A stretch of DNA of 64,000 bases from an uncultured virus (IMG/VR IMGVR_UViG_3300025845_000008) (IMGVR_UViG_3300025845_000008:1-64000); one strand, 5' to 3'. Counted from the stretch's first letter, positions 32,057 through 54,261 are shown. Made by a program: numbers and translations. Notes: a model not told the origin generated them from the letters alone.

Positions 32057-32089
32057 ATGTGGTATTAAATATCATATATGGAGGAATAT

Positions 32090-37012: not shown

Positions 37013-37020
37013 TATAAATA
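37013..37020 (+). promoter_or_regulatory. T4 late promoter TATAAATA
   Basis: exact consensus, intergenic, 48 bp before the first radical SAM gene. Confidence 0.7.
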
Positions 37021-37068
37021 CATTTATGGTATTATTTTGTAAATAAAGAATCGGGAGATATTTAAGTT

Positions 37069-38193
37069 TTGAAGTCATTAACAGTTGAATATGTTATAAC
37101 AGAACAATGCAATCTTAATTGTGAATATTGCTATATGAAAAATAGTAATACATATATGGATCTCGAAGGAACCCTTCATTTTATCGAAAATGTCCATAAA
37201 TTAATGGAAGTATATGGTAGTGATAAATACAATATATCATATTTTGGCGGAGAGCCTTTAATGAATTGGGGGTTGATTGAAAAGTCAGCCCCTTTATTCA
37301 AACAAGACCCTAGATGTGAACATCAGATAATAATAAGCAACGGTCTTCTTCTTGATGAAAATAAAATAAATTTCATAAAAGAAAATGAGATTGGATTTTC
37401 TTTCTCCTTTGATGGATTGTGGCAGAATAAAAATCGTCCACATGTATCACACGAGGATGTGTTTTCATTATATATGAAAAAAATTCCCCTTGTAAAAAAA
37501 CTTGTCGGTAATGGTGGGGGTAAAGTTATGGTATCCCCTAGTAATATTGATACAATGACAGAAAATTTTGAATTTTTTGTAAACGAAATTGGAGCTTATT
37601 TTCCAGATTTCAGTCTAGTTCGAGATGATATTTGGAGTGAGGATGATGTAAAAAGGTTCAAGGTTGAGAGCCGGAGACTTGCTGATAGAATTGTAAAATA
37701 TTACGAAGACGGTAAGGCGGTTTTTGTTGGGTTTTTTGGATTACATCTCATCGATTCTATATTAGGTTATAATAAAGGTAAAAGACCTTTTGGGTGTTTT
37801 GCGGGATGTTCTGGTGTTGGTTATATGCCAGACAAACAATTTTATTTATGTGCCAGATACGGATCAGGTGATTCTGATAAAAGTGGTCTTATAATGGATG
37901 TTAATGGTAATTTAAATCATGATTTGATTAATAAATATTTAGATCCAAATATTCATAACCCTAAATGTTACGAGGAATGCAAGGCATGTGATCTGTATAA
38001 ATTTTGTAATGCTGGTTGTACTTATTCACAGACACGTGAAGATGAACAAGGTAATATAACAGCAAAACCAGTAAAAAATGTATGTGAATTATATCATATT
38101 ATACAAGATGATGTATTTTATTTACACGATAAATTAAAAGATAATAAGTTATATATTGATTGTATGGTGAATCGTTATGGTAAATACTTTTAA
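37069..38193 (+). CDS. radical SAM/SPASM protein
   Basis: CNLNCEYC, FGGEPL, CFAG...C...CKACDLYKFCNAGC; TTG start after GGGAGA. Confidence 0.92.
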   Translation: MKSLTVEYVITEQCNLNCEYCYMKNSNTYMDLEGTLHFIENVHKLMEVYGSDKYNISYFGGEPLMNWGLIEKSAPLFKQDPRCEHQIIISNGLLLDENKINFIKENEIGFSFSFDGLWQNKNRPHVSHEDVFSLYMKKIPLVKKLVGNGGGKVMVSPSNIDTMTENFEFFVNEIGAYFPDFSLVRDDIWSEDDVKRFKVESRRLADRIVKYYEDGKAVFVGFFGLHLIDSILGYNKGKRPFGCFAGCSGVGYMPDKQFYLCARYGSGDSDKSGLIMDVNGNLNHDLINKYLDPNIHNPKCYEECKACDLYKFCNAGCTYSQTREDEQGNITAKPVKNVCELYHIIQDDVFYLHDKLKDNKLYIDCMVNRYGKYF

Positions 38194-38205
38194 GGAGAAA
38201 ATGCA

Positions 38206-38562
38206 ATGAGTGTAAAAAATATGTCAGAAGTTGTTAGAAAAATGATGGATATTGTTAATTTAATGGAAGAATGCCCTAGTACTCCCGAAAAGGATGCTAT
38301 TGTAAACTCCATGCTTAAATTATCATCCATGGTATTGAATAATTTGATGAATGGAAAATCGCCGATGAAGAATGATGGGAAGTGTGATAATCCTGATTGT
38401 AAGTGTGGTGGCAAAAACAATCAAGACGGTAATGGGTGTAATGGTCATACAAGTCAAGGTGGTAATCTTAGGTCTAATAATATATTACCTTCTGTTGATT
38501 TAAATTCTACGATAGAGAAAATAAGAGAAGAAATTAAAAATAGTAAAAATGAAAAAGACTAA
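38206..38562 (+). CDS. small Cys/Gly/Asn-rich protein in radical SAM cluster
   Basis: AAGGAG RBS; KCDNPDCKCGG...GCNGHTS. Confidence 0.7.
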   Translation: MSVKNMSEVVRKMMDIVNLMEECPSTPEKDAIVNSMLKLSSMVLNNLMNGKSPMKNDGKCDNPDCKCGGKNNQDGNGCNGHTSQGGNLRSNNILPSVDLNSTIEKIREEIKNSKNEKD

Positions 38563-39370
38563 TATTATATATTTGACGACAAGATGTAACCTTGGATGTG
38601 AGTATTGTTACGAGTCAAGAAAAAATCAGATACAGAGTGATGTCACGAAGGATCAAATTGATGAGTTTATATCTGAGATAGAAGTTCGTGAATCAGAATA
38701 CAATCAACACACGGTTGTTATTATGGGTGGTGAGCCAACTATAGTTCCCGATATGGTTGAGTATATAGCAGAAAAAATGATTTCTTCTAAAAAAACATTT
38801 AATGTTCATATGAACACTAACGGTATATTATTGGATAATGATGACTACAGGAATAAATTTTATGACTTGATTGAAAGATCTTCTGATAATGGTGTTAGTT
38901 GGCTAGTTTTGGTTAGTTATGATTGGAAAAATAACAACAAGAGGAAATTTAAAAGCGGTGAAACGTCTACTCATATAGTGGAGAGTACTTTACGTAAACT
39001 TAGTAATGAGGATAGACAGTTCGGTATATCATGCACTGTTTCATATGATAACTGTGAAGAACTTATGGACTATAGCATTAATATATTAGAAAGATATAAA
39101 ATTGTTAGATTGGTTTTTTCTTGGAATTACCAGAATATATCGAATCATATAGGACCTGGTTATATAAAACAGTTACAAGAGTATTATGATCCGTATATGG
39201 CTGAATTACAAAGAATGTACGATGTTAATATCTGTGGTTTTAATGGAAAAACGTGTTTTGAATGTGGAAATTGTGCAGGAATAGATTATGATGGTAATTT
39301 ATATTTAAGCCCAACAAAGGGTATATTGATAGAACCATCTACAACTTTCAAAGAGTTTGATAGATTTTAG
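38549..39370 (+). CDS. radical SAM protein
   Basis: CNLGCEYC, MGGEPT, TNG; short C-term CFECGNC. Confidence 0.9.
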   Translation: MKKTNIIYLTTRCNLGCEYCYESRKNQIQSDVTKDQIDEFISEIEVRESEYNQHTVVIMGGEPTIVPDMVEYIAEKMISSKKTFNVHMNTNGILLDNDDYRNKFYDLIERSSDNGVSWLVLVSYDWKNNNKRKFKSGETSTHIVESTLRKLSNEDRQFGISCTVSYDNCEELMDYSINILERYKIVRLVFSWNYQNISNHIGPGYIKQLQEYYDPYMAELQRMYDVNICGFNGKTCFECGNCAGIDYDGNLYLSPTKGILIEPSTTFKEFDRF

Positions 39371-39388
39371 GAACAATAAGGATTATGG

Positions 39389-40483
39389 ATGAGAATATTT
39401 CATATAGATATAAATTCGACAAGACAATGTAATTTAAGATGTAAGTATTGCTATGAGGCTAATAATAGTCTTATGGAGAATGAGTCATATAAAGATCCTG
39501 AAAACTTCATCAAGTTCTGTAAAGATTTCATGGAGTCCGATTTCTTTAAGAGTAATTATGATGCAATTAAAGTAAATTTTTGGGGCGGAGAGCCTTCACT
39601 TAACAAAGAATTATTTAACCATTTAATGGATGAGTTCTTAGAAGATAATAGAGTTATCTTTTTTATGTTTTCTAATGGATTTTATATAGATGATTATTAC
39701 ATAAATTTATTTAAAATGTTACAGAAGATAAAAATTAATAGCGAACCTAAATTTGTCATGCAGGTCAGTTATGATGGTGAAATTATTCATGACATAGATA
39801 GGGTTGATGTTAAGGGTAAAGGTTCTTCTGAGAAGGTTAGACAAACTCTACAGAAGCTTATTGATAACAATATATATTATGTTATGAAAAGTACTATATC
39901 CCCTAAAAACTTTAAACACTTGTATGAAGCATATCTTGATGTAAGTAAATTTTTACCCCAAGGACGTAGCTACTTTCCGACGATAGATTTGCATCTTTCT
40001 TATGAGGAAGGTGATGATAGTTATAAACAACATGGTCAAGATTTATATGAGCAATTGATAAAAATATCATCATACCAAAAACAAAACGGATTGGATAATT
40101 TTGTGTTTTTCTTTCCCAATAAAGCATTGTGTGCTGCCGGTGTTAGTATGATAGCAGTGGATATTAATGGTAATATATTACCATGTCATGGGGCTTTATA
40201 TACCAATTATGATGAACATCTTATTGGTAATGTTTCGGACGAGGATGCTATTGATAAAGTTATAAATAGTTCAAATTGGTTTAAAGACTTCTATACAAAC
40301 GTTCCAGAAGAATGTAAAGGATGTACAAATAAGTTTTGTTTGAAGTGTAATGTTGTGAAGTATGAGCATAGTGAGAAAGATAAATATGAGGAAAAATGGA
40401 CTGATCATACCTGTCAACCTTATCAATGTTATTTTTTTGATATAATAGATTTGGTTAGTAGGGCACATAGAATGGTTAGTTAA
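39389..40483 (+). CDS. radical SAM/SPASM protein
   Basis: CNLRCKYC, WGGEPS, CAAG..PCHG..CKGCTNKFCLKC. Confidence 0.92.
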   Translation: MRIFHIDINSTRQCNLRCKYCYEANNSLMENESYKDPENFIKFCKDFMESDFFKSNYDAIKVNFWGGEPSLNKELFNHLMDEFLEDNRVIFFMFSNGFYIDDYYINLFKMLQKIKINSEPKFVMQVSYDGEIIHDIDRVDVKGKGSSEKVRQTLQKLIDNNIYYVMKSTISPKNFKHLYEAYLDVSKFLPQGRSYFPTIDLHLSYEEGDDSYKQHGQDLYEQLIKISSYQKQNGLDNFVFFFPNKALCAAGVSMIAVDINGNILPCHGALYTNYDEHLIGNVSDEDAIDKVINSSNWFKDFYTNVPEECKGCTNKFCLKCNVVKYEHSEKDKYEEKWTDHTCQPYQCYFFDIIDLVSRAHRMVS

Positions 40484-40494
40484 GGAATTTAATT

Positions 40495-41565
40495 ATGGCA
40501 TGTAATGGGCATGTAAGTAGTACGGGTTGTCATGGTCATACCCTAACGGGGTGTGTAGGTCACATTAACTCATGTGGTGGTCATTCTGGATATTATCCAT
40601 CAAGGGCTGTTGCATTTACTAATAATGTAGCGGATTCTGGTGATATCATAGACTATGAGAATGAACTTAATGAATTAAGAGATGAACTGAATTATGAGGC
40701 GTCTAGGAGAGGATTAACTAATCTATTAATTCCCGTATTTGATCAACCAGTGGATGCACTTGAAATAAGAACCATGAGAGATACTTATGTGAGTATAACA
40801 GGGAACTGTGCAGATACCCCTATAAGTGATGCAGACATTGTAACAGGTGAACTAATACGTCCAATTACAGTAGAATCCATGTTAGAAGGATTTATCGATT
40901 GGGCATCTAATTGTACGTGTAACTGTAACTACTCTTGTACGTGTAACTGTAACTACTCTTGTACGTGTAACTGTAACTACTCTTGTACGTGTAACTGTAA
41001 CTATTGTGCATGTGATTGTGATTATTGTACATGTCAGTGTGCTTATGCTTGTACTTGTGATTGTAATTATGCTTGTACATGTGAGTGTAACTATTGTGCA
41101 TGTGATTGTAATTATGTTTGTACTTGTGATTGTAATTATGCTTGTACATGTCAGTGTGATAATGAGTGTAATTGTGATTGTAATTATGCTTGTACATGTC
41201 AGTGTGATTATGCTTGTACCTGCGATTGTAATCATGACTGTATTTGCGATTGTAATCATGCTTCATGTAGTTGTGATTATGCTTGTACCTGCGATTGTAA
41301 TCATGACTGTATTTGCGATTGTAATCATGACTGTATTTGCGATTGTAATCATGCCTGTATTTGCGATTGTAATCATGCCTGTATTTGCGATTGTAATCAT
41401 GCCTGTATTTGCGATTGTAATCATGCCTGTATTTGCGATTGTAATCATGCCTGTATTTGCGATTGTGCTTATGCTTGTACTTGTGATTGTAATCATGCCT
41501 GTATTTGTGATTGTTATTATGTAACATCGTATGTTCCTAGTGGATGTTATAGTCACAAAAATTAA
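40495..41565 (+). CDS. Cys-rich repeat protein, putative radical SAM substrate
   Basis: AAGGA RBS; 4x CxGH N-term, ~110-aa linker domain, 26 CxCxC-x-[YH] units. Confidence 0.8.
   Translation: MACNGHVSSTGCHGHTLTGCVGHINSCGGHSGYYPSRAVAFTNNVADSGDIIDYENELNELRDELNYEASRRGLTNLLIPVFDQPVDALEIRTMRDTYVSITGNCADTPISDADIVTGELIRPITVESMLEGFIDWASNCTCNCNYSCTCNCNYSCTCNCNYSCTCNCNYCACDCDYCTCQCAYACTCDCNYACTCECNYCACDCNYVCTCDCNYACTCQCDNECNCDCNYACTCQCDYACTCDCNHDCICDCNHASCSCDYACTCDCNHDCICDCNHDCICDCNHACICDCNHACICDCNHACICDCNHACICDCNHACICDCAYACTCDCNHACICDCYYVTSYVPSGCYSHKN
40912..41514 (+). repeat. 21/24-bp coding tandem repeat array
   Basis: TGTACGTGTAACTGTAACTACTCT x3+ and TGTATTTGCGATTGTAATCATGCC x5 plus degenerate copies. 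Confidence 0.95.
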
Positions 41566-41579
41566 TAGGAGGTTAAAAA

Positions 41580-42164
41580 ATGTTGGCTGTTAAGATATTT
41601 CCTTTAGATGAAAAGAAAGCTAGAATAACAGGTTCTGGTGATATACCAGAAGGGAGCAGTGATCCTACAGTGTATATAGGTGTTTCAGATGAAGTGTATA
41701 AATTTGTATGTGATAACATCGAAGAACATATATTAATCTGTCCTAGAAACGTGGAAGAATTGAAAGTGGATATGATAGAGGTTAAGGCTGCCAATATTCT
41801 AATAGAGTTAAAACATACAGCTGTAAAGGCATACAAAAATTTCCATTTGGGTAGAGTTATGGATCCAGAATTTCTCATTACATTTATAGATTATACCATG
41901 TTGAATAATAAATTTTGTTCACATGGGTTTTTTATAACACAGGATAATAAAGAAGAGATGTATCTTGACATACTGAATACCGGTGATATGTCACTTATAG
42001 AATCATTGGAGCGATACCTTAATGTTTCTGATAAAATATGTGAGTATTGGTGCCATACGGATAATTTAATTAAATTCAAAGAAGAAATTTATAATGCCGA
42101 AAGTAGGGAAGAATTGGAAGAGATATATAAAAGGTATTGTTACGGTCAAAGTTTCATTAAGTAA
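41580..42164 (+). CDS. hypothetical protein (possible fibre assembly chaperone)
   Basis: AGGAGG RBS; C-term KEEIYNAESREELEEI. Confidence 0.6.
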   Translation: MLAVKIFPLDEKKARITGSGDIPEGSSDPTVYIGVSDEVYKFVCDNIEEHILICPRNVEELKVDMIEVKAANILIELKHTAVKAYKNFHLGRVMDPEFLITFIDYTMLNNKFCSHGFFITQDNKEEMYLDILNTGDMSLIESLERYLNVSDKICEYWCHTDNLIKFKEEIYNAESREELEEIYKRYCYGQSFIK

Positions 42165-42168
42165 TTAA

Positions 42169-43035
42169 ATGTTTAGCGATAAAAACATTATATTATTCGG
42201 TTTGGTATTAGATGCCGAATCTAACATTACTCCAATGGGGTCATTATATGACGCATTGGAGTATTTTATGTTTATATATAAGCATAACAAAGATGTACAT
42301 CTCATCTTTAATATAATTAAGATTAATCGGTATGTTAAGGATGTAAAAATAGAAAGTATAAAGAATGAAATAGTAAAAATAATCAATGGTAAATATGACA
42401 TAAGCGATTACTCATTTATGGGTAATGTTCATGTTCTGAATTTAAAAGACTTGTTCTTTAAAAATAAACCAAATATAGTCATGACTGTTGATCTTACGAT
42501 GCCTTTCGGCTTTAAAAATTTTATGTGTAGAGCTAAAGAAGTCATAATAATACCTGAATATACGACCAGTATGTATTACTATAAATCAAAAAAGAATAAG
42601 GTTACCTATTTTACTGAAATGTCATTTTGTTATTCAGATGTCCCTTATAAAATGAAGATTGATTTTGAATCGCATAAGAAGATAGATAAGTTTGATAATA
42701 AATTATATGTTAATTATCCAAAGTATGATGCTAAAAATAGACCAGAAGTGTTAGATTTTGCCTGTGATATAGGCAAAGAATTGTTGATTAAAGAAGATCG
42801 ATATTTCTATGATCTTCATGAAAGGTTTGATGAATATGTTTATTTTCAATCGGATAGATGGTTTGATCCTCACCCAAGATTATTTCATGAATGTAAATTA
42901 TACAATAAACCCTATCACTATAAGAGTATTGGTGTAAAGGATGGATCTTATTATCGATATAAAGATAGTCTGGCCGAGAATCTTAGTGACCGACAACTGA
43001 CAAAGGATGATATTATTGTTAAAATGATGTCTTAA
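42169..43035 (+). CDS. GT-B-like glycosyltransferase candidate
   Basis: DPHPRLFHE..LYNKP resembles the [DE]x7E motif; weak similarity to 53434-54261. Confidence 0.45.
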   Translation: MFSDKNIILFGLVLDAESNITPMGSLYDALEYFMFIYKHNKDVHLIFNIIKINRYVKDVKIESIKNEIVKIINGKYDISDYSFMGNVHVLNLKDLFFKNKPNIVMTVDLTMPFGFKNFMCRAKEVIIIPEYTTSMYYYKSKKNKVTYFTEMSFCYSDVPYKMKIDFESHKKIDKFDNKLYVNYPKYDAKNRPEVLDFACDIGKELLIKEDRYFYDLHERFDEYVYFQSDRWFDPHPRLFHECKLYNKPYHYKSIGVKDGSYYRYKDSLAENLSDRQLTKDDIIVKMMS

Positions 43036-43056
43036 TTAATAATTTGTGAGGTACCT

Positions 43057-44169
43057 ATGAAGGTTTTTTCTGAGAATGAGTGGAGTCCCCTGAAAGAAGT
43101 TATTGTTGGTTCTGCTTTTTCTGATTACGTTTTTGATGTCGACCTATCTTTTAAGTTGTTTTTTCGTGATAATTATTCTTGGGGAGCCAGAAAAGGATCC
43201 CCAGAAAGAATTGTAATAAAAAAGAAATATGTAGATGAATTACAAGAAGATGTTGAATGTTTTTCCGAAACACTCACAGACTTAGGTATTAATGTACACA
43301 GACCAAATGATATAAAAAAGGTCGTTAGGGTTAAAACTCCTCATTGGTCAACAGAAATAATTCCAGCACTGAATGTTCGTGATCAGACCGTTATACTCGG
43401 TGATACTATTCTTGAAACATCACCATGTGTGAGGAATAGATATTTTGAAAACGACCTCATGAAAGACATTTTTTATGAGGGTTTTCTTGATGGGGCTAAT
43501 TGGATGGTGATGCCTAGACCTATCATGACCGATAACAGTTTTGACAGGAACCTTTTAGATCACAAGTCAAAGTTGAACTCAATACCAGACAAACCGTTCG
43601 ATCATAGCGATTTGTTCCTAAACCCAAACGATATCATACCTGATGCTAATGACCTGAAAATACATGAAATGATGATTGATGGCGCTCAACTGGTACGTTT
43701 TGGGAAAGATATCATAATCAATATTTCCAACAAAAATCATTACTTGGGGTACCTGTGGATTAAAAGACAATTCCCTCAGTATAATTACCATCCAGTTTAT
43801 TCGCTGTGTGATAACCATTTGGATACACTGATAGTTCCTCTATGCGAAGGTGTTTTGTTGTTAAGGTCTAAGAAGTTTGAAGAATTCCTACCCCCATTTC
43901 TAAAAGATTGGAAGATCATATATCCACCTGAGATAAGAAGTGATATGTTCCCTAAATATGATTCAACCGACCTTATATTAACATCACCATATATTGACAT
44001 GAACATATTATCGGTTGATGGTAATAAGATAATTGTAAATGAGTTGTTCCCTGAACTATCTGAACTGTTGTATAGTGAGGGGTTTGATCCCATTCCAGTG
44101 CGACACAGACATAGGAAGATATTTGCTGGTGGATTCCACTGTTTCACATTGGATCTGTTGAGAGGTTAG
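43057..44169 (+). CDS. amidinotransferase (glycine/inosamine-phosphate amidinotransferase family)
   Basis: ENEWSPLKEVIVG, NVRD, HLD, GGFHCFTLDL (catalytic Cys). Confidence 0.9.
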   Translation: MKVFSENEWSPLKEVIVGSAFSDYVFDVDLSFKLFFRDNYSWGARKGSPERIVIKKKYVDELQEDVECFSETLTDLGINVHRPNDIKKVVRVKTPHWSTEIIPALNVRDQTVILGDTILETSPCVRNRYFENDLMKDIFYEGFLDGANWMVMPRPIMTDNSFDRNLLDHKSKLNSIPDKPFDHSDLFLNPNDIIPDANDLKIHEMMIDGAQLVRFGKDIIINISNKNHYLGYLWIKRQFPQYNYHPVYSLCDNHLDTLIVPLCEGVLLLRSKKFEEFLPPFLKDWKIIYPPEIRSDMFPKYDSTDLILTSPYIDMNILSVDGNKIIVNELFPELSELLYSEGFDPIPVRHRHRKIFAGGFHCFTLDLLRG

Positions 44170-44925
44170 ATGGAAGTACAAGGAAAAAGGGTGATGTTTG
44201 GGCCACCAAGAGGATATACATCTTCTATATGGGATTATTTTAAGGTTCTTCCCGATTATCATACTCACAAAACCAAAGAGTTTGACAGGGATACGATTCA
44301 TGCCATGTCTGACGAAGATGCTTACAAAGAGTATTTACAAGGATATGATGGTTCGAAGCCATTTATAGATTGTTGTTTGTTGTATTATAACAACCATGCC
44401 AACTTATCGTTTATTAAGGATTTGTTATTTACCGATCTGGACTGCTCTGTGTATAATGTCAGGTCATACAAAGCCGCCGTAAAATCTTATTATCTAATGG
44501 TTATGAGAACCATGAATAAATTTTATATGGTCGATGATTTTGAATACTACGACCAAGCAGGTAAAGATAGGTTGTTTGATTTTGCATATAACCGATTCTC
44601 TGTTGAATGGCATCTAAACTATATTAAAAATACCTGTAGGTATAAAGGTGATGTATATTTCGTGCAAGGTGTTGATATACATGAAGTGATGAACACCTTT
44701 AATATGAGAATACCGAATTATGGATTACAGAAACTTAATTCGACAGCATCACATCTTGTGATTAAACCAAGACTCAAGTATATGCTTGAAAGGTTTAGAG
44801 AGTTCGAGCGGTACTGGTCAGACAATATAGAAAAATGTCATGCTGTTAGGGAGAACAACATTAAGATACTGAAAGAATCAAGATTCATAGGGAAATTTGA
44901 CGAGGATTTATATAGACGTGAATAA
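44170..44925 (+). CDS. sulfotransferase-like P-loop protein
   Basis: MFGPPRGYTSSIWDY...H.HKTKEFD resembles the PAPS-binding N-terminus. Confidence 0.55.
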   Translation: MEVQGKRVMFGPPRGYTSSIWDYFKVLPDYHTHKTKEFDRDTIHAMSDEDAYKEYLQGYDGSKPFIDCCLLYYNNHANLSFIKDLLFTDLDCSVYNVRSYKAAVKSYYLMVMRTMNKFYMVDDFEYYDQAGKDRLFDFAYNRFSVEWHLNYIKNTCRYKGDVYFVQGVDIHEVMNTFNMRIPNYGLQKLNSTASHLVIKPRLKYMLERFREFERYWSDNIEKCHAVRENNIKILKESRFIGKFDEDLYRRE

Positions 44926-45898
44926 CAACCAAAAAATAAATCGAAAGTATTTAGAGCCTTTAATGAACTGGTGTCAAGAACATCCTTTAAGTGAGTTTGG
45001 TGTCATATATGATAATGAGAGATACTTTGCTGATTATCTTGGCGTTAAGACATTCAAGTTTGTGAATTCTGGCACATCAGCATTAGATTTGATAATGAAG
45101 AGAATATCTATCGATAGACCTAAACCTCTGATCTATGGACCCTCATTCTGTCATGTATCATGGATCAATGTTTGTGAATGGAATGACTTTGAATATTATT
45201 TTGTTGATGTTAAGGAAGATACCCTATCTATTGATCCCGTAAAATTGAAGGAGATGATCGTAGAAAAAGGAGTTCCTGATATCGTTGTTATGGTTGATAT
45301 GGGTGGTTACGTTGGCGATGATACGTTGACTGTGAGGGAGATATGCGACTCTCATGGTATAATTTTGGTTGAAGATGCCGCGAATGCCTTCGGTCAACAG
45401 TATAAGGGTTATAAGGCTGGAACTATTGGTGATTTCTCATTCTTCTCATTTTCCAATCCCAAACTTCTGACGTGTGGTGAGGGGGGTGCTATTGTATGTA
45501 ATGGTGACGACTTTAATGATTCTTTTGAGGAAATGATTTATCAGGGTGGATGGTATAAATACGGAAAGTCCAGACGAACAAATGGTCTAAATTATATTAT
45601 GTCTAACTGGATGACTCAGTTATTAAGATATCAATTAGATGATGTAAACGTGATACAAAAAGAACGTCATGATCAGTTTTTAGTATATTCAGATAAATTT
45701 AATTTATTTAGATATGAATCTGATAATAAATATTATTCACCAAGTTACTACTGCTACAGACAGAAGGGGATATCAAAGAAGATCCTTGAAAGGGTGCCTA
45801 GTCTTGAAATGCACCGATATAGGAATCATGACTCTCGTTGCACTGTTGGTGGGATTCTAGAGGACGAACTTGTATATCTCCCCATGGAGTATAAATGA
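44897..45898 (+). CDS. DegT/DnrJ/EryC1/StrS PLP aminotransferase
   Basis: VNSGTSALDL, EDAANAFG, SFSNPKLLTCGEGG; true start may be GTG 44918. Confidence 0.92.
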   Translation: MTRIYIDVNNNQKINRKYLEPLMNWCQEHPLSEFGVIYDNERYFADYLGVKTFKFVNSGTSALDLIMKRISIDRPKPLIYGPSFCHVSWINVCEWNDFEYYFVDVKEDTLSIDPVKLKEMIVEKGVPDIVVMVDMGGYVGDDTLTVREICDSHGIILVEDAANAFGQQYKGYKAGTIGDFSFFSFSNPKLLTCGEGGAIVCNGDDFNDSFEEMIYQGGWYKYGKSRRTNGLNYIMSNWMTQLLRYQLDDVNVIQKERHDQFLVYSDKFNLFRYESDNKYYSPSYYCYRQKGISKKILERVPSLEMHRYRNHDSRCTVGGILEDELVYLPMEYK

Positions 45899-47205
45899 AA
45901 GTATTACTTATAGATCTACCATTATTAAACTTCAAAACAGATGACTATAATATTGGGTTGTGCTATCTATTGGGGTACATGAAGCATAACAACGTGGAAT
46001 GTGAGTCAATAGATTTTCGTTATAGTGATTATGTGCAGAGTCATATAAAGAATCCAACCGTATACACTTCCACAGAAAAGTATGAGAAGTTTAGAAACGA
46101 CAAGAAGAGGGCTGACTGGTTTAGAGAGACAGTAGAAAAGCCTAGATTATATGTTGAGTTTTGATGTTATAGCGTTCAGTATATTCTTTGAACTAAACAA
46201 GATACATTTTGATGAAATGTATGAGATAATAAAACCTCATCTAAAACCACACCACAAGGTTGTGGTTGGTGGTAATTATCTCAGCCACTACGACCATCAT
46301 CTTGAATTCGAAGACCTTGATGTTGATGTTGTTGTTGGACCCGGCGAACCCTACTTTGAGAAATTATTTGATCTTCCACATATAGATCTATATTCGTATA
46401 ACCAAGTTCTGCCTAGACACCTTCCAGCAGCATCTATGCCCGTTTTAGTGGGTTTGGTTGTATCCATAAATGTTTGTTCTGTACTCACAGAAGACAGAAA
46501 TTCTTCTACAGGAAGGTTGACTACATCATCAAGGAAATGTTGTACTGGAAACGCACAACAGGTCGGTTCAGATTTAACATCAGAACAGATAATATATTCA
46601 ATAATTATAAGTACTTAAATGACCTAACAAAAAAGTTGACCATAGTCAATAGATCATGGGATGGTGAAAAACTCCAATGGTCTGCCAATGCGACACTATG
46701 GGATTTTGATGGATTCATGAAGAACGTTAATAAGAATGACTTCATAAAGTCTGGATGCAGGATATTAAGTGTAGGTGTTGAGTCTTTTAATAAAGAAGTT
46801 CGTGACTCTATGAATAAGCCTGAATATGAGAATGAAGAGTTAGCTAAATGGTTTGATTTTGCGTTGGAGAACGATATAAAAATATATGTGTATCTTATGG
46901 TTGGTTATATAACAGAAACGGATCAACAGTTTGATGATGGTTTGATCGCTCTCAAAGGGTTTTTTGACAGGTACAGTGCTTGTATAGGGGATGTTGCTAT
47001 CTCTTTTTATACGATTCATAGCGAATATAATTATATCGGATATGAGGATCAAATAACATTTGATAGTGATGGTAATTGGATATACAAAGATAATATACAT
47101 GAGAAAAGAGTAGACAGGGTTAGAAGGCTTAAAGAACTTTCGATGAACTATGATGTTCATCCAAGATTAATGGGTACAGATGATAATGAAAAAAATGAGG
47201 TATGA
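45895..47205 (+). pseudogene. B12-binding radical SAM enzyme split by two frameshifts (or sequencing errors)
   Basis: NIGLCYLLGYMK / DVIAFS..VVGGNY..VVGPGE / GCIHKCLFC...SGCRILSVGVESFN..YLMVGY..ET spread over ORFs 45895, 46151 and 46474. Confidence 0.75.
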
Positions 47206-47208
47206 ATA

Positions 47209-48332
47209 ATGTTATATTATAATCCGTTTGCTATAGATAAACTTCTACGAAGGAGGGATGAGGCGTATGGATTATTCCATCTTAATAGAGCCGCCGCGCA
47301 TAAATTTGATAGAACTGGCCTTTTTACCATGTTTGATGTAGGAGATAAAATCAATTTCAAATCAATGTTTGGTCTGCCTGATTTCTCTACACCATATAAC
47401 AAGAACTTCGAAGACACTGCTATGGCAACGGCACAAAGAATTGTCGAGAACAACGAACCATTTAACCTTTATTGGTCTGGTGGTTTAGATTCAACAACCG
47501 TTCTGATATGCCTCCATCAGTGGTGTGACCGCATAAAAAACCGAATGAAGGTTATAATGACAGAGGCTTCTATAAGAGATAATAAGTATGCTTATGATAC
47601 TATAATTAAGCCTAATTATGAACACGTGGTCTGTGAGGATTTCGGTGGAGCGCAGAATAATTATTCACTGGATTATATGAATGTGACTGGTGATGCTAGT
47701 GAAGCCATTTATGGATGGTCTGGTATTCTCCAAAACTTCATGAAGGAACTTGGGGTGAAAGGTTTGTATATAAAGCTCAAAGATATCCCCAAATTAAAGA
47801 GCAGATTAAGTCCAGATAATTATACAACATTTGAATATTATTTGAAATTGTATGAACTGATCAAGGTGACCCTACCAGCATGTCCTATTGATATTGTTGA
47901 TATTCAGGATCTTAACTGGTGGTTCGTGTTTAATTTCTGCTATCAATATGACGTGTTGAGGTTCATGGTTCCTTATTACAGGAACTATGAAAAGTGTTGG
48001 GCGAACATGAACGCTTTTTTGCTAATGATGACTGGCAGTTATGGATATATAACACATACGAATCTACCATGAAGGGCGTAACCGACTTCAACTATATGAA
48101 GAAAGATGAGATTAATTTCATAAAGAGACATTATCCGAAGATTGATCTGTCTCATACGTTACCAAGAAAGACAAACGTTCATCTGAAATACCTAGCACCA
48201 AAGGACTTCTTACTGATAGGTGATGACTATAACATTGTTGATTGTCCTGGCTATCTAGAGACGACAAAAAAGGAAATGATGGAGAATTATAAGAACAAAC
48301 CACTAGAAGAAGTGCAAATGTTGTTTGATTGA
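47209..48332 (+). pseudogene. PP-loop (SGGLDS) adenine-nucleotide alpha-hydrolase-like protein, frameshifted at T6
   Basis: YWSGGLDST, VTGDASEAIYG, WWFVFNF; -1 shift at T6 (48015-48020) continues FFANDDWQLW. Confidence 0.65.
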
Positions 48333-49153: not shown

Positions 49154-50082
49154 AGAAGACAACCTTTGCTGATTTTAAAAAACAATGGTATTTCAGTTTA
49201 ACCGAATATTGTAGTTGGAAGTGTTCTTATTGTGACTTTCCATGTAAAACTGACCCAAAAGTTGCTCCAATTGAATATGTAGAGGAAGTATTTGACCGCA
49301 TCAAGAGGATCACCAATTATGACCAATCCATAGAGTATTGCCTTGAAGGTGGAGAGATTGGGTTGTTTGATCAGGATTATCTCGATAGAGTGTTTAATAG
49401 TGGTCTTTCTGAAACATACAACGTTGCTACTAATGGTCTGTTCATGGAGAAAAGTTATCATAAGAGATATTCCGACAAAATCCATTATATTCTATATCAC
49501 ATTGCTCCTGAGATATATGACGGGGTGAAGTATAAGGAGTATGATTTTGGTGATATTCTGTGTTACTATACCTTTGTTATAAACAAAAATAACCTACCTA
49601 TTTTGGATAAGTTTCTAACGGATAATCTTGATTCTAAACACCGGTTTCTGCCTCATATACTTCAACCAAGAACACCCGGTTTGGATCTGTTGACCTATGA
49701 TGACTTTATACAAATGTATGATATCATTAAGGATAAATCGAATGTGAAACCAGATTTCATTGAGAGAGTGGTGAGGATTATTGAACGGCACAATGATGAA
49801 CCGTGGTTGGACTCTCACAGAAAAATTTGTGCCAGTGTGTATACACAACCTATCTTTGATTTACCAAATAAGAGGGTTAACCGATGTTGTATATCAATCA
49901 CTGGTGATTCAGTTGATATTACAGATGATAATTTAGAAAGGTTGTATAAAAATAAAATAATGTTTAGTTCATTGAAAGATTCTGTGTGTGATGGGTGTAT
50001 TGCTAATTTTTTATGGCACGATTGGAGACACAGGAGATATATGAAAGAGATTATTAAGATACATAAGGGTTTTAGTTCATGA
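49150..50082 (+). CDS. radical SAM protein
   Basis: CSWKCSYC, GGEIGL, TNGLFME, RCC...CDGC. Confidence 0.88.
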   Translation: MKKTTFADFKKQWYFSLTEYCSWKCSYCDFPCKTDPKVAPIEYVEEVFDRIKRITNYDQSIEYCLEGGEIGLFDQDYLDRVFNSGLSETYNVATNGLFMEKSYHKRYSDKIHYILYHIAPEIYDGVKYKEYDFGDILCYYTFVINKNNLPILDKFLTDNLDSKHRFLPHILQPRTPGLDLLTYDDFIQMYDIIKDKSNVKPDFIERVVRIIERHNDEPWLDSHRKICASVYTQPIFDLPNKRVNRCCISITGDSVDITDDNLERLYKNKIMFSSLKDSVCDGCIANFLWHDWRHRRYMKEIIKIHKGFSS

Positions 50083-51035
50083 AAGCTTATGTCGGGATAA
50101 CAAACAATTGTAATGCCAAGTGTTTCACCTGTAATAGACAAGTTCTTAAAGGATACAGGCATAATGGTGAAATGACCATAAATGTTATAGACAAGATCCT
50201 TGATGCGTCAAGTACTATCGCATATATAGGTGAAATGGGAGACTTTATTTTTCACCCCAAAAGTCTTGATATAGCCCGAAGAACAGTAGAGCGTGGGGTT
50301 GATATGGATGTGGATACCATAGGGAGCATTCATGGCGAGGATTACTGGACGGTGTTGGGTAAGATATGTAACAAAGAGAACACTGTTATACGTTTCGTGT
50401 TGGATGATCTTATCACCGATCCACACAGACAGGTGGATACTGAAAAGGCGTTAAAGAACCTACAGACATTCATTGATGCTGGTGGTAACGCCCATGTCAA
50501 GACGATTCTATTCAATTTCAATCAACACATAATTGAAGATATGGCTGATTATCTCAAGAACATGGGAGTAAATCACTACGAGACGATCAGGTCACGGTTG
50601 TATATGGACGAAGGACCACTTTCAGCACCAACGGTTAATTATAAGTCATGTCTGGATCTATTAGAGAATGTTCAACGCAGGGCACCAAAGGATTGTATGT
50701 GGCACAAGTACGAAATGTACTATGTTAATGAGTTAGGAGAGGTTAAGATTTGTTGTCATTTGCCTTTTGAGGGTATACGTAACGCAGATTCCATAGAACC
50801 CTTCATGGAACCATATGTTGGTATGACTATGTTTGGTGATATAATGGATGTATATGACAGGGGTAGAGAGGACATGAATTTGAACAACGATTGGGTGACA
50901 GTAGAGTCGGCTTTGAACAGTGAATTCAATCAGTACATGTTGAATAACAAACACAAGAACACGATATGTCGATTCAGGTGTAGTGACCAAGAACAGGTGA
51001 GAAACCTCATGTTCCAACACACAAGGATATTCTAA
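50079..51035 (+). CDS. radical SAM protein (twitch-like C-term)
   Basis: CNAKCFTC, GEMGDFIFHP, GEVKICC, CRFRC. Confidence 0.88.
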   Translation: MKAYVGITNNCNAKCFTCNRQVLKGYRHNGEMTINVIDKILDASSTIAYIGEMGDFIFHPKSLDIARRTVERGVDMDVDTIGSIHGEDYWTVLGKICNKENTVIRFVLDDLITDPHRQVDTEKALKNLQTFIDAGGNAHVKTILFNFNQHIIEDMADYLKNMGVNHYETIRSRLYMDEGPLSAPTVNYKSCLDLLENVQRRAPKDCMWHKYEMYYVNELGEVKICCHLPFEGIRNADSIEPFMEPYVGMTMFGDIMDVYDRGREDMNLNNDWVTVESALNSEFNQYMLNNKHKNTICRFRCSDQEQVRNLMFQHTRIF

Positions 51036-52018
51036 TGTACGAGAATGTTAACATAGGTATAGTTTCATATTGTAACGCTAAATGTTACCTTTGTAACAGA
51101 CAGACCGTACCAGAATTCCCACGTGTCACCATGTCCATAGAAACCTTCCGAAAGGTCATTCCTTATGCAAAAAAGATGTCCTTTATCGGCGGGTTTGGAG
51201 ATTTCATAAATCACCCACAAAGCCTTGATTTTGTTAGAGAGATAGGCGACAAACCTTTCATGATAGAAACCAATGCAGGTATTCGTGATGAGAGCTACTG
51301 GAAGGAACTTGCATCTATGGCCAATGATGCCGATCATTATGTACAGTTTTCTGTTGATGAAGTGTTTGAAAGTCAGAACCCTTACCGTATGGTAGACACA
51401 AAAATAGTGTTACATAACCTCAAGACGTTCATTGACGCCGGTGGATATGCTGTTGTTAAAACTATCAGATTTAATTTTAACGAAGATAAAATACCTATTA
51501 TGACTGAGTTTTTTAAGAGCATTGGAGTTAAAGAGTATCACACACAATTGTCGATATATTATCCAGATAAAGGTGATTCCATTTTATCCGCACCACATGT
51601 ACCGGGTGTTTTTGTAAATGGAACGTTACCACTTGTTTACAAAATTAACGAAAAGTTCAGCAAATCAGGGGTGAAATGTGGGTGGAAGGAAGGTCGATGG
51701 TTGTACATAGTCGAGAATGGAGAAGTTCACAGGTGTTGTAAATTATCGATATATATCAATGGTATGCAGGATAACGCCCCTGCCCCTATATCGAAGTACA
51801 CACAGGATGAGTATTATGATGATATATCTGAAATTTATTATCGTAACAAGGAATTAATAAACCTTAACACCGATGGTGTTACTATGGAAACTATACAGAA
51901 TAACGAGTATTTCAGATACATTGAAGAGAAGTTTAAGCACGTTAAAAGATGTAAAATATCTTGTGCTTTAAGGTATGATATTGCCAATAGAATGCTAGGA
52001 TTAAAGAGGATATTTTGA
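51035..52018 (+). CDS. radical SAM protein, paralog of 50079-51035
   Basis: CNAKCYLC, GGFGDFINHP, GEVHRCC, CKISC. Confidence 0.88.
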   Translation: MYENVNIGIVSYCNAKCYLCNRQTVPEFPRVTMSIETFRKVIPYAKKMSFIGGFGDFINHPQSLDFVREIGDKPFMIETNAGIRDESYWKELASMANDADHYVQFSVDEVFESQNPYRMVDTKIVLHNLKTFIDAGGYAVVKTIRFNFNEDKIPIMTEFFKSIGVKEYHTQLSIYYPDKGDSILSAPHVPGVFVNGTLPLVYKINEKFSKSGVKCGWKEGRWLYIVENGEVHRCCKLSIYINGMQDNAPAPISKYTQDEYYDDISEIYYRNKELINLNTDGVTMETIQNNEYFRYIEEKFKHVKRCKISCALRYDIANRMLGLKRIF

Positions 52019-52890
52019 ACGTATTTTTTGTAGAGTTTCTTGCCACATATAACTGCGACCAGAACTGTTATTACTGTGATATAATAAACAAGGGTATAAA
52101 CACTTATACAGAAATGGATATGGATAAGTTTAAATGGACTATTGATATCCTTGGATCTGAGACGAAGAATCTCATGGTCGAGATTTGTGGTGGCGAGACA
52201 GGTCTGATTAGTAACGTGGAAGACGTGATAAGGTTTTTGAAGGACCATAAGTCAGTCAAGAAGACTCAGATAATGTCCAACGGTCTTTTACGTGTACAAC
52301 ACCCTGAAATTATTAAGGAATTTGATTATTACAATGAACATCTTGTCAGGGATATCATAGGAAGGGATGTACAGAAATTCCATGATATAGAATTTTGTAG
52401 TGATGATAACGCTAAAACCGTCATTGTCATGACAGAGAACACAGTAAGATCATTATTAGAGAATGAAGAATATTATAGAGATATTATCGAATCAGAATCA
52501 TTTTGGTTCAAAATATTCATTGAGAGAAGTGTTGATATCTCTACCAATCATTTAGATATGATGAGGGAGTTTTATAATAAATATAATGTGATGTTTTGTG
52601 ATTTTTATATGAATAAATTGGAGATGAAGAATGATTCATTTTCTAAAAGTTTGTGTACAAAATATCCATTTTTACCGGTTATAGATATGGAGAATAATGA
52701 TATAATTCATTGTGCATATTATAATTTTACCAATAAAGTGACTAAAGATTTGAACGAAAACAATCTAAGGGATTTGGTTAACAAAAAACTATTTATTACG
52801 GAATCACCTGATTATTGTTGCTCATGTTATGATTATTATCAAGATCCTCATTTTCTTATAAGAAGGAATAAAAGTAATAAACAATTATGA
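52015..52890 (+). CDS. radical SAM protein
   Basis: CDQNCYYC, GGETGL, SNGL, CCSC. Confidence 0.88.
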   Translation: MNVFFVEFLATYNCDQNCYYCDIINKGINTYTEMDMDKFKWTIDILGSETKNLMVEICGGETGLISNVEDVIRFLKDHKSVKKTQIMSNGLLRVQHPEIIKEFDYYNEHLVRDIIGRDVQKFHDIEFCSDDNAKTVIVMTENTVRSLLENEEYYRDIIESESFWFKIFIERSVDISTNHLDMMREFYNKYNVMFCDFYMNKLEMKNDSFSKSLCTKYPFLPVIDMENNDIIHCAYYNFTNKVTKDLNENNLRDLVNKKLFITESPDYCCSCYDYYQDPHFLIRRNKSNKQL

Positions 52891-53453
52891 TATTTCAGAT
52901 AAATTACAAATCAAATGGTAAGTATGATGAGTATTTTGATAAGAATAGATCCATATCCAGTAAACTCAATCATGTTATATACGAGGATGAATTTATTGAT
53001 GATTTTCTTGATTCTTATGGATACAGGGAGTGGGTCGAATCTGTCAAAATAACAAGGAACTATAAACATTTAAGGATTCCTATCATATGTGATCTTATAC
53101 GACTATTGATTTTGTATGAAAAAGGTGGCATATATATTGATGCTGATACTATATTCAAAGATAAAATGTTAGAACTTGAGAGTAATATGGAGAAATATGG
53201 AAATAGAAATGTATTTCTTGATAACAAAAACTTAGGATTCGTGAGAGGTATAAAGCACTCTGGTTATTTAAAGAAAGTATTAGCCGCATATAAAGCTAAA
53301 GAATTGACTGTTGATAAATTTATGGTTTATGATAGAAAGTTGTCGAACAATCATAAGGAGTTGTTTCTGCTGCCCTATGATCATGTAAATAGGTACTTTA
53401 CCCATTTATATGATCATAACAATAGCACTAAAAATGAAGATAATAACCTTTGA
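52887..53453 (+). CDS. DxD glycosyltransferase (GT32/Och1-like)
   Basis: DLIRLLILYEKGGIYIDAD. Confidence 0.85.
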   Translation: MIFQINYKSNGKYDEYFDKNRSISSKLNHVIYEDEFIDDFLDSYGYREWVESVKITRNYKHLRIPIICDLIRLLILYEKGGIYIDADTIFKDKMLELESNMEKYGNRNVFLDNKNLGFVRGIKHSGYLKKVLAAYKAKELTVDKFMVYDRKLSNNHKELFLLPYDHVNRYFTHLYDHNNSTKNEDNNL

Positions 53454-54261
53454 TATGTCAATAAACGGTAATATGTTGAATGCCGTTGATATGCAGAATT
53501 ATTTTGGGTGTGATCTGATTGTATTGGAACAAAAACCAATACGTTATTTCAATGTAAGTAAAGGTATATATAGACCTTTCAGGTGCTTTATAACCAACAA
53601 AATACCTGATGATGATGTTTTTATTATAGATTATAAGGCATTTTTGTATATATTAGAAAATAGTGTATCTTTTGGTTGTGATAAAATGATAGTTATGGAC
53701 TGTCTTGAGCTAACACTACAACAATTAGATATGACCTATCATAAATATTATAAAAAAATATCTAATATGGAGTGTTTGTTTGAGGGTCTATTCCCCAAAA
53801 CGGAAATTCAGTTTTTAATGCCCAAAAACAATTTTGATATATTTGATTTAGGGTTTCCTTGTGACGTGTTTCATAAGAAAATAAATTTTGATATTATGAA
53901 TTTTCCTTCATTTATGGATGATAATTTTGTATATAGACCCGATGTTGATAATAGTGTTTTATTGTCATGCTATTCAGAAGCGAATGAATGTGATCTAGGT
54001 AAAGACTTATTTAAGTCAAAAAATTTTATATATCAGAGGCGAAGTACTCTTGGATTCATTGAACAATTTGGTAGAATGGTGTTCGAATTATATTATACAA
54101 ATCGTGACATATGGACTGTCGGTGATATTTTTGATGGAAATGATGGTCTGACAGAGCATTTAAGATTATTAGATGCCAGTGTTATTGACAGTAAATTATA
54201 TATTCCTAACATAGAAGACATCAACATGAATAACTATAACTATATGGATAAATACTTATAA
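53434..54261 (+). CDS. GT-B-like glycosyltransferase candidate
   Basis: EQFGRMVFE fits the Ex7E motif; alternative start 53410. Confidence 0.5.
   Translation: MKIITFDMSINGNMLNAVDMQNYFGCDLIVLEQKPIRYFNVSKGIYRPFRCFITNKIPDDDVFIIDYKAFLYILENSVSFGCDKMIVMDCLELTLQQLDMTYHKYYKKISNMECLFEGLFPKTEIQFLMPKNNFDIFDLGFPCDVFHKKINFDIMNFPSFMDDNFVYRPDVDNSVLLSCYSEANECDLGKDLFKSKNFIYQRRSTLGFIEQFGRMVFELYYTNRDIWTVGDIFDGNDGLTEHLRLLDASVIDSKLYIPNIEDINMNNYNYMDKYL
54247..54254 (+). promoter_or_regulatory. putative late promoter GATAAATA
   Basis: 7/8 match to TATAAATA, 40 bp before a fibre gene; same 13-mer as at 42-54. Confidence 0.5.

Follow-up and report, generated by a model that had tools for sequence, protein, structure and literature searches.

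The DNA analysed here (the window) comprises the opening 64 kb of a virus record of 75,472 bases in IMG/VR (IMGVR_UViG_3300025845_000008; CheckV completeness 32%), and its subject is an operon at 37069–54261 in which nine radical S-adenosylmethionine (SAM) enzymes, a Cys-repeat protein, and a set of sugar-type enzymes are encoded together. PHROG matches to tail sheath, tube, baseplate hub and wedge, and tape-measure proteins at 4.5–19 kb revealed a T4-like myophage as the source genome. The operon region follows a gp55-type late sigma factor gene (32078–32539, PHROG) and precedes SbcD/SbcC (gp47/gp46) homologues at 57122 and 60562, with a G+C content of 30–40% along the full length of the window. 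Near-identical DNA occurs in 24 public DNA runs labelled as aquifer and hot-spring metagenomes, most of which may be the source, and no RNA run is among those listed; megablast of the operon against GenBank phages returned no match.

Every long open reading frame (ORF) of the operon lies on the + strand, and neighbours abut or overlap (Table 1). The original prediction, made from the sequence alone, described about 17 co-oriented, abutting genes; orientation and abutment stood, and the count rose to 19. It also pointed to an exact TATAAATA word ahead of the operon, which is present. The window has 12 copies where 12.0 are expected, so there is no enrichment of the word, and it is read as a possible promoter only because of its location in the 83-nt gap before the first gene; the late expression first proposed gained no support from it. 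Operon boundaries did not emerge from a scan for sigma-70 promoters and terminators, which gave 106 promoter-like sites where 108 were expected. The genes on both flanks had been called fibre-like, and both are probable fibre or structural proteins, with only partial matches to annotated tail fibre and structural proteins. A homologue of the 1474-aa upstream gene holds the same position ahead of the cassette in two related viral loci (L016 and L017), while the 919-aa downstream protein had no family match in Pfam or PHROGs.

Table 1. Features of the operon and its immediate neighbours, in window coordinates
Feature	Position	Strand	Basis
Upstream neighbour, 1474 aa, probable fibre/structural protein	32561..36985	+	weak PHROG rows; partial tblastn matches to 'putative structural protein'
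TATAAATA word, possible T4-type late promoter	37013..37020	+	exact match in the gap before the operon
rSAM1, radical SAM/SPASM, 374 aa, without N-terminal RiPP recognition element	37069..38193	+	Pfam Radical_SAM 3.5e-10
ORF118, small helical protein with Cys/Gly/Asn-rich middle	38206..38562	+	no family match (Pfam, PHROGs, NCBIfam)
rSAM2, short radical SAM enzyme, 273 aa, C-terminal Cys cluster	38549..39370	+	Pfam 4.4e-14
rSAM3, radical SAM/SPASM, 364 aa	39389..40483	+	Pfam Radical_SAM and SPASM PF13186, 26.9 bits (cut-off 21.5)
Cys-repeat protein, 356 aa	40495..41565	+	83 Cys; CxGH motifs, helical middle, ~25 repeat units
ORF194, conserved partner directly after Cys-repeat gene	41580..42164	+	homologues directly downstream in 9/23 non-window loci
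ORF288, GT-B-fold protein, likely glycosyltransferase	42169..43035	+	two-Rossmann GT-B fold
Amidinotransferase, StrB1/AGAT family	43057..44169	+	PDB 1bwd 6.1e-44; AGAT 2jdx 6.4e-31 over residues 3-369
ORF251	44170..44925	+	no match in Pfam, PHROGs, NCBIfam or PDB
DegT/DnrJ/EryC1-family sugar aminotransferase	44897..45898	+	PF01041 2.8e-45, 155.6 bits (cut-off 19.8)
B12-binding radical SAM gene, split by two frameshifts	45895..47205	+	three frames; B12-binding and Radical_SAM Pfam rows
PP-loop-like gene (SGGLDST motif), split by one frameshift at T6 run	47209..48332	+	two frames
rSAM5 and rSAM6, small paralogues, 274 and 310 aa	48329..50082	+	PHROG radical SAM families; Pfam Radical_SAM below cut-off
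rSAM7 and rSAM8, tandem paralogues, 318 and 327 aa	50079..52018	+	phrog_21308
rSAM9, small radical SAM enzyme, 291 aa	52015..52890	+	Pfam 3e-5, below cut-off; CX3CX2C at residue 14
GT-A-type glycosyltransferase with DXD, 188 aa	52887..53453	+	Pfam Gly_transf_sug 4.3e-10, above cut-off; 'DAD' in translation
ORF283, EX7E-like motif by eye	53410..54261	+	homologues in L017, L022/23, L036
Downstream neighbour, 919 aa, probable fibre protein	54295..57054	+	partial matches to annotated 'tail fiber protein', 'virion structural protein'

The Cys-repeat protein, whose gene starts 11 nt after rSAM3, holds exactly the 83 Cys residues that had been estimated for it. Four CxGH motifs at residues 3–30 are followed by a conserved helical middle and, from residue 140, by units of the form C-[TI]-C-[DNQE]-C-[ND]-[YH]-x. 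A regular expression (C.C.C..) counted 25 such units, spaced by 8 residues and in a few cases by 7, and Tandem Repeats Finder assigned the gene 26 copies of a 24-nt period. Position 4 of the unit is D/N/Q/E in 25/25 cases and position 6 is N/D in 22/25; each unit therefore offers two C-X-X-(acid/amide) motifs, C-X-X-[DNQE] in all 25 units and a second, C-X-X-[ND], in 22. At 40882–41556, the minus strand and the alternative frames also contain ORFs of 97–206 aa; these are by-products of the repeat and not genes.

A search with residues 1–175 of this protein gave 684 candidates, of which 366 at E ≤ 1e-3 form a large, almost wholly uncultured family, mostly of 195–300 aa within an overall range of ~200–850 aa. 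Its members share variable N-terminal C-x-[GST]-H motifs, a conserved middle domain with invariant E60, E68, R71, and R72, and, after it, 4 to >12 units of C-T-C-x-C-N-Y; many terminate in S-D-E-R-L-K-x-x-I. At precisely this point, right after the last repeat, a Peptidase_S74 domain begins in 5 of the 12 members scanned, and one of the 12 has an F5/8 type C domain. The S74 intramolecular chaperone is found at the C-termini of trimeric phage fibres and spikes, after the rods. Since the S74 of the relatives sits where trimeric fibres have it, the repeat most likely serves as distal rod in an appendage of the same trimeric kind, by analogy with those proteins.

Comparison of close alleles disclosed that the repeat changes in length. 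P0001, a 198-aa protein from a 217,819-base contig that is 92% identical outside the repeat, has ~6 units against ~25 in the window, an approximately fourfold difference by which copy number changes between close strains. The allele of a third locus (L012) has one unit more than the window, whose array is by far the longest among the family members examined. In the N-terminal part, the C-x-[GST]-H repeat (window 40501–40590) is spaced by 8–9 residues and varies from 1 to ~8 copies among P0002–P0037; this stretch could bind metal or act as an additional site of modification. Three long members (P0039, P0043, and P0123; 520–851 aa) contain a post-repeat domain starting C-F-L-A-G-T-P-V-L, Hint/intein-like by eye, which would be a second kind of self-cleaving module replacing S74. 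Pfam found nothing in that domain, and no Pfam domain in three longer fused family proteins (682–851 aa). A tblastn search of GenBank phages with the window protein, P0004, and P0097 recovered only an S74 fragment, a result in which the low-complexity filter may hide repeats, and a search of genome contigs for the 8-residue-spaced DNA pattern found 0 stretches.

All nine proteins proposed as radical SAM enzymes were borne out. The CX3CX2C motif is present in 9/9, eight by regular expression and the ninth (GCIHKCLFC of the B12-type gene) in the frame translation, and PF04055 (Radical_SAM) matches each at E ≤ 0.0016, exceeding its curated cut-off in four. For the three enzymes encoded directly upstream of the Cys-repeat gene, the PapB ranthipeptide maturase model (cut-off 340 bits) was the best NCBIfam match in every case: rSAM1 (5e-33, 114.7 bits), rSAM2 (6.7e-17, 61.7 bits), and rSAM3 (1.5e-29, 103.3 bits). 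The closest solved structure of rSAM1 and rSAM2 is 5wgg/5why (2.9e-15 and 1.1e-6), and 5WHY is CteB (PMC13692751). Residues 10–321 of rSAM1 align with 103–420 of the 5wgg chain; the enzyme has its CX3CX2C at residue 14, 10 Cys beyond residue 150, and CX2CX5CX3C at residues 304–317. In agreement with the two SPASM-type enzymes first proposed, rSAM3 exceeds the PF13186 cut-off and the alignment of rSAM1 to 5wgg extends to residue 321. Overall, the three enzymes in sequence resemble peptide thioether maturases best, as judged by the PapB model and the CteB structure 5wgg.

The other top NCBIfam rows of rSAM1–3 are mostly peptide maturases as well (nif11, QhpD, SCIFF, CXXX-repeat, Cys-every-fifth, TIGR04463), with anaerobic sulfatase maturase also among them. 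TIGR04463, the CrpC family, matched rSAM3 at 6.1e-15 and 54.9 bits, far below its cut-off of 525, and is not among the 25 best NCBIfam rows for rSAM1 or rSAM2. The search that the original prediction had proposed, with hidden Markov models for SPASM, for the recognition element (RRE) of peptides made on ribosomes and modified after translation (RiPPs) or PqqD, and for the CXXX system, succeeded for SPASM; PqqD matched no operon protein in Pfam or NCBIfam, and the CXXX-repeat maturase model TIGR04115 stayed below its cut-off of 350 bits (rSAM1 4.4e-19, 69.2 bits; rSAM3 1.1e-17, 64.6 bits).

Further downstream, rSAM5 and rSAM6 share 26% identity (E 5e-15), and rSAM7 and rSAM8 share 35% (E 3.8e-58) with weak similarity to gp080 of Campylobacter phage CP220; by these alignments they are two pairs of old paralogues. 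Homologues of rSAM5/6 occur in L017, L022/23, and L035/36, and one of rSAM9 in L036 (37%). These five enzymes have 5–7 C-terminal cysteines and no informative family, and rSAM7 had no informative match in the PDB. In rSAM2 and rSAM5–9, the C-terminal Cys clusters were assessed for SPASM/twitch character by count only.

To place the operon among relatives, we compared the loci retrieved by an alignment of the Cys-repeat family (A1), which yielded 26 viral loci; PF04055 was searched in 25 records. It matched in 20 of the 25, with 140 matches in total, and 39 of these fall no more than 3 kb from the Cys-repeat gene, where an even spread over the same records would give 8.7. The order rSAM1-(rSAM2)-rSAM3-CysRepeat-ORF194 on one strand recurs in L016–L019, L022/23, L030, L035–L037, and others (25–57% identity, tblastn), often with ORF283- and ORF288-like genes after ORF194; ORF288-like genes occur in 7/23 loci. 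Two of the three contigs from metagenome-assembled genomes that carry the repeat (L054 and L055) have an rSAM3-like gene directly upstream. A minimal version stands in L016, whose gp55 is 71% identical, at the same locus: gp55, fibre, an rSAM2-type gene (41% identity) as sole radical SAM gene, CysRepeat, ORF194, a short-chain dehydrogenase/reductase (SDR) sugar enzyme, and then gp47. As judged from these gene orders, the conserved core is rSAM1-(rSAM2)-rSAM3, the Cys-repeat gene, ORF194, and GT-B-like ORFs, and not the whole operon.

The predicted co-occurrence of Cys-repeat and radical SAM genes in related phages is also seen in their joint absence. Two large relatives, G026 (98% complete) and G027 (85%), with tail proteins 62% and 56% identical to those of the window phage, lack both the Cys-repeat gene and any radical SAM match, while the alignment did match the positive control G025; these two genomes constitute the whole control set lacking the gene. 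The literature on phage radical SAM, SPASM, and ranthipeptide genes yielded no description of this cassette, with the combination of ranthipeptide and phage covered at the level of titles and abstract openings of the papers listed.

The same parts can be recognised in Campylobacter phages. CP220 and CPt10 are reported to contain 11–12 radical SAM genes, five of which form, with a glycine amidinotransferase, an 'interchangeable module' of unknown function (PMC2853527, 2010). The original prediction had pointed, correctly, to such phages with multiple unexplained radical SAM genes, and we found that they also carry a CTC[DN]CNY-repeat protein: a 534-aa protein of CP220/CPt10 has six to seven of these units. 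Homologues of rSAM1, rSAM2, rSAM3, rSAM7/8, ORF194, ORF288, and the amidinotransferase accompany it. rSAM1 is 37% identical to CP220 gp023, rSAM3 33% to CPt10 gp141, and the amidinotransferase 32.6% to CP220 gp086; for rSAM2, ORF194, and ORF288, Campylobacter phage homologues show 29%, 46% (over 61 residues), and 26% identity. The repeat protein and the rSAM1 homologue are present in the same 15 Firehammervirus records. In CPt10, the repeat gene adjoins a gp63-like tail-fibre attachment gene and lies 3 kb from the rSAM3 homologue. In contrast to the window, where one operon holds all of these, CP220 and CPt10 have them dispersed over the genome, with the repeat inside the 534-aa protein. We argue that the parts work together because the window packs into one operon what these phages scatter. 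The published account (PMC2853527), as excerpted, draws no link between the repeat protein and the radical SAM genes.

A precedent for the chemistry exists in an archaeon. CrpC of Methanococcus voltae, a SPASM radical SAM enzyme, is reported to put ranthionine links on CrpA, a 28.8 kDa protein with ten 17-residue Cys repeats and C-X-X-Q/D motifs in which the Cys stands ahead of the acceptor (PMC13692751, 2026). By analogy, we hold with moderate confidence that the window operon specifies RiPP-like thioether stapling of a virion fibre protein, combined with glycan decoration. The operon would be an enlarged version of a mobile phage cassette that matures one fibre-type protein by chemistry borrowed from RiPPs, and its substrate would be the 356-aa Cys-repeat protein. 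Each of rSAM1–3 would take a hydrogen off an acceptor residue and then join the sulfur of a neighbouring Cys to that carbon, so that small thioether rings with C-X-X-D/N spacing would line the repeat like the rungs of a ladder. Once stapled, the repeat would become the distal rod of a trimeric virion appendage, with folding templated in relatives by the self-cleaving S74 chaperone and here maybe helped by ORF194. With DegT, the amidinotransferase, and the other small radical SAM enzymes as suppliers, the GT-B-like and DXD glycosyltransferases may add an unusual amino or guanidino sugar to the Cys-repeat protein or a neighbouring fibre.

Fibre character is favoured by the S74 domains of relatives, the gp63-like neighbour in CPt10, and the position of the window gene between two large structural-type genes. 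The earlier proposal that virion parts are cross-linked and glycosylated is partly supported: the linkage of radical SAM and Cys-repeat genes, the S74 fibre character, and the likeness to maturases speak for it, all called from sequence. The predicted late timing and the presumed target of the glycan enzymes did not gain support, and the cross-links and glycans themselves are predictions.

Several observations weigh against stapling of a fibre protein. rSAM1–3 score far below every NCBIfam equivalog cut-off and are consequently outside every named family. They also lack the N-terminal RRE used by CteB and CrpC: their radical SAM motif begins at residue 13–14, and because the 5wgg alignment starts only at chain residue 103, the phage enzymes are without the N-terminal leader-binding domain. 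Pfam detected no Peptidase_S74 (PF13884) in the window protein or in the short allele P0001. A radical SAM gene is missing from 5/25 Cys-repeat records. L029 has none around a repeat gene that stands mid-contig, flanked by 10 kb on either side; L020, L021, L025, and L027 have none in at least 10 kb upstream, the gene being <2 kb from a contig end; and in L056 none was found within -4.5/+8 kb. In Campylobacter phages, the distance between most radical SAM genes and the repeat gene is tens of kb, from which it follows that clustering is not obligatory. Part of the operon may moreover be decaying, since the B12-type and PP-loop-like genes are frameshifted in this strain. Finally, the amidinotransferase and DegT genes do not track the Cys-repeat gene, occurring in 4/25 and 5/25 of its records, which makes the glycan half of the model weak and does not bear out the proposal that these enzymes act on the Cys-repeat protein. 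By this distribution, the sugar-tailoring enzymes are a variable shell round the conserved core, as is often the case with glycan genes.

The amidinotransferase resembles solved members over nearly its full length, as had been proposed; it had no Pfam match at E ≤ 0.01, and its translation contains 'GGFHCFT' near the C-terminus, which we take to be the catalytic Cys motif. The DegT assignment was likewise upheld by PF01041, and the best NCBIfam matches are NDP-4-amino-sugar transaminases, all below equivalog cut-offs. Among the proteins described as glycosyltransferase-like, the DXD enzyme and the GT-B-fold ORF288 were confirmed; the GT-B matches of ORF288 to protein- and lipid-directed enzymes score above that to T4 alpha-glucosyltransferase (ranks 35–46).

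These enzymes raise the alternative that an aminoglycoside-like or guanidino sugar is built by most or all radical SAM enzymes in concert with DegT, the amidinotransferase, the glycosyltransferases, and the B12-type methyltransferase, and is put on virion proteins or the infected-cell surface, the Cys-repeat protein being an ordinary fibre component that happens to share this variable locus. A StrB1-family amidinotransferase beside DegT, a B12-type radical SAM gene, a GT-B-fold protein, and a DXD glycosyltransferase would suit such a pathway. The SDR enzyme that closes the minimal cassette (L016:11274–12116, NDP-sugar epimerase/dehydratase-like, YxxxK by eye) is also consistent with it, in that even the smallest cassette keeps a sugar enzyme. 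In cyanophage S-SCSM2R (L013), three glycosyltransferases, a DegT-like protein, a radical SAM enzyme, a further glycosyltransferase, an amidinotransferase, and a GT2 form a block in which no Cys-repeat match was found, and in CP220 the module of five radical SAM enzymes and amidinotransferase is far from the repeat gene. We nevertheless regard a pathway of this kind as unlikely. rSAM1–3 resemble peptide maturases and not sugar-modifying radical SAM enzymes, their synteny with the Cys-repeat gene is tight whereas the sugar enzymes come and go, and no NDP-sugar 4,6-dehydratase or nucleotidyltransferase is among the Pfam or NCBIfam matches of the operon. The S-SCSM2R virion proteome was reported to include a 'glycine amidinotransferase', ORF266 (PMC12801897), which is distinct from ORF309, the amidinotransferase matching the window enzyme.

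Alternatively, the repeat could form a metal-binding or disulfide-locked needle, a trimeric beta-helical rod whose inward Cys residues bind iron or zinc or form disulfides, with the Fe-S enzymes as neighbours for another reason or the protein acting as their Fe-S or sulfur store. The alternating Cys of a 7–8-residue repeat and the N-terminal CxGH motifs would fit, and S74 in the relatives implies a trimeric rod. Eight-residue repeats form the triple beta-helix of T4 gp5, and T4 gp37 binds iron with HxH motifs; on account of both, we count the needle as having points in its favour. In addition, the authors of the CrpA study are reported to suspect metal binding by that protein (PMC13692751). 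We consider the needle quite unlikely as the whole explanation, as it would leave unexplained both the conserved adjacency of SPASM enzymes and the D/N/Q/E that invariably stands three residues past the opening Cys of a unit. It is compatible with stapling, for stapled repeats could also bind metal.

The position of the operon also recalls DNA hypermodification. In T4, the DNA alpha-glucosyltransferase gene lies between gp55 and gp47, and the DNA of Campylobacter Firehammervirus is modified. Enzymes at this site, between the late sigma gene and gp47/gp46, might therefore decorate phage DNA, and T4 alpha-glucosyltransferase does appear among the ORF288 matches. Such a role is nonetheless highly improbable: TGT/DpdA and QueC family members were found in 0/3 records (G000, G024, and G025; 32–68% complete), the PP-loop-like gene matches no QueC model, the protein- and lipid-directed matches of ORF288 score higher, and the Cys-repeat gene would have no explanation. 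Very little credence can be given to a repeat protein that is cleaved and exported during infection as an antimicrobial or signalling peptide, a role suggested by the RiPP-type enzymes and by the speculation of the S-SCSM2R authors, who could not explain their block, about 'antibiotic synthesis genes' (PMC12801897), because Pfam, PHROGs, and NCBIfam revealed no protease, transporter, or leader-cleavage motif in the operon, relatives carry fibre chaperones and a discoidin domain as fusions, and the protein is 200–850 aa long.

The B12-type and PP-loop-like genes deserve separate mention for their state in this strain. The first had been called a B12-binding radical SAM gene, which its B12-binding and Radical_SAM rows and an intact 435-aa orthologue (L010:15401–16708) support, while in the window it is broken over three frames. 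The second had been called a PP-loop protein; its SGGLDST motif is visible by eye, the gene is frameshifted, and its intact homologues (~374 aa) gave PP-loop and Asn_synthase rows in Pfam at sub-threshold level only (E 0.12–0.26; PF01171, PF00733, PF06508). The L010 orthologue reads through, and P0126, an 80%-identical homologue from another contig, likewise ends at 287 aa. The three frameshift sites (46150–46165, ~46400–46450, and 48010–48020) are all at T4–T6 runs, that is, runs of four to six T. Contigs of 4/4 sequencing runs show no indel at these sites; because the four agree, the breaks are true strain features and not errors of one assembly. They could reflect decay or programmed slippage.

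The same region marks an allele switch. L010 and L012 are 99.7–99.9% identical to the window up to 45781 and then continue with a diverged allele (L010:15287–17589), in which the B12-type gene has 40–62% amino-acid identity and the next gene 76% nucleotide identity. Both alleles coexist in two runs, at depths of 12.4 vs 5.6 and 53 vs 286. Position 45781 looks like a recombination breakpoint within the operon.

Four further operon genes have less informative matches. ORF118-like ORFs (100–177 aa, with similar terminal helices) follow rSAM1, ahead of the next radical SAM gene, in L017, L018, L019, L022, L030, L035, and L037. ORF194 was modelled by AlphaFold at a pLDDT of 86.7 as a small beta domain with long helices; it had no match in the PDB by single-sequence or profile search, its best Foldseek hits were at E 0.22 in the PDB and at E 2.4e-3 in BFVD (uncharacterised phage proteins), and weak Atlas leads, all below 0.9, pointed to DUF4376/XkdW-type tail proteins. 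ORF251 has a homologue in L017 (30%), and the sulfotransferase likeness once suggested for it found no match in Pfam, NCBIfam, PHROGs, or PDB. ORF283 had no family match, its profile retrieved nothing from the PDB, and it was rejected as a relative of ORF288 (hhalign probability 1.4%). Elsewhere in the window, the baseplate wedge genes are followed by a 2536-aa ORF (19379–26989) that probably encodes a giant protein of the baseplate or a fibre; its only match is a short HNH-like or phrog_21918 one near residues 2030–2100.

If the stapling interpretation is correct, the operon would represent a new class of post-translational modification of virus particles. Radical SAM thioether stapling is so far associated with small peptides and, since 2026, with one archaeal protein; viruses would then also use it to make a particle protein harder or more diverse. 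In Campylobacter group II phages, the radical SAM genes, unexplained since 2010, would gain a function, and the presence of the parts in CP220 and CPt10 makes the idea testable in cultured phages that are in use as biocontrol agents. A 7–8-residue, three-Cys repeat with strain-level changes in copy number would be a new structural element of fibres, and protein-modifying maturases that work without an RRE would be of interest for enzymology. Tentatively, we further suggest that phages took over RiPP chemistry to obtain a rod of thioether rings, proof against proteases and reduction, with its length tuned by repeat expansion and a strain-variable coat of guanidino or amino sugar; radical SAM enzymes, each specific for a position, would make such a stack of rings out of every C-x-C-x-C-N-Y unit. 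Should the sugar pathway be right instead, an unusual phage-borne route to an amino or guanidino sugar would still have been found.

Among known systems, CrpA/CrpC is the nearest one characterised, and the mechanism proposed here is drawn by analogy with it. Both place a SPASM enzyme gene beside that of a large protein with a C-terminal Cys tandem repeat and C-X-X-(acid/amide) motifs, and CrpC is reported to form intramolecular thioether links on a protein, not a peptide, possibly with help from a second small protein of its cluster. In contrast, the window has three enzymes, which are not of the TIGR04463 family and lack an RRE, and a repeat of 7–8 residues with three Cys instead of 17 residues. 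It also belongs to a phage structural region with S74 chaperones and glycosyltransferases, and it is known here from its DNA alone.

PapB/PapA (freyrasin) and CteB/CteA (SCIFF; 5WGG/5WHY) share with the window the combination of a radical SAM enzyme with SPASM auxiliary clusters and a Cys-rich repeated acceptor pattern. The window enzymes differ in falling far below the cut-offs and in lacking an RRE, the candidate substrate has 356 aa compared with a peptide of ~45 residues, and the operon has no leader peptidase or exporter. The CXXX-repeat system (TIGR04115) similarly pairs a SPASM maturase with a Cys-periodic target, whereas the window repeat is C-x-C-x-C-N-Y and not CXXX, with scores of 69 and 65 vs 350 bits. 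Peptidase_S74 fibre and spike proteins (endosialidase type, PF13884) are linked to the system by the relatives that carry S74 after the repeat, a domain that the window protein does not have; the literature on phage fibres, radical SAM enzymes, and ranthipeptides yielded no S74 protein with a Cys repeat or radical SAM partners. By these comparisons, the system would be protein-level RiPP-type stapling moved into the virus particle and joined to glycan enzymes, and the window adds features of its own: an extreme, strain-variable repeat allele, a single-operon layout, allelic replacement past 45781, and three frameshifts.

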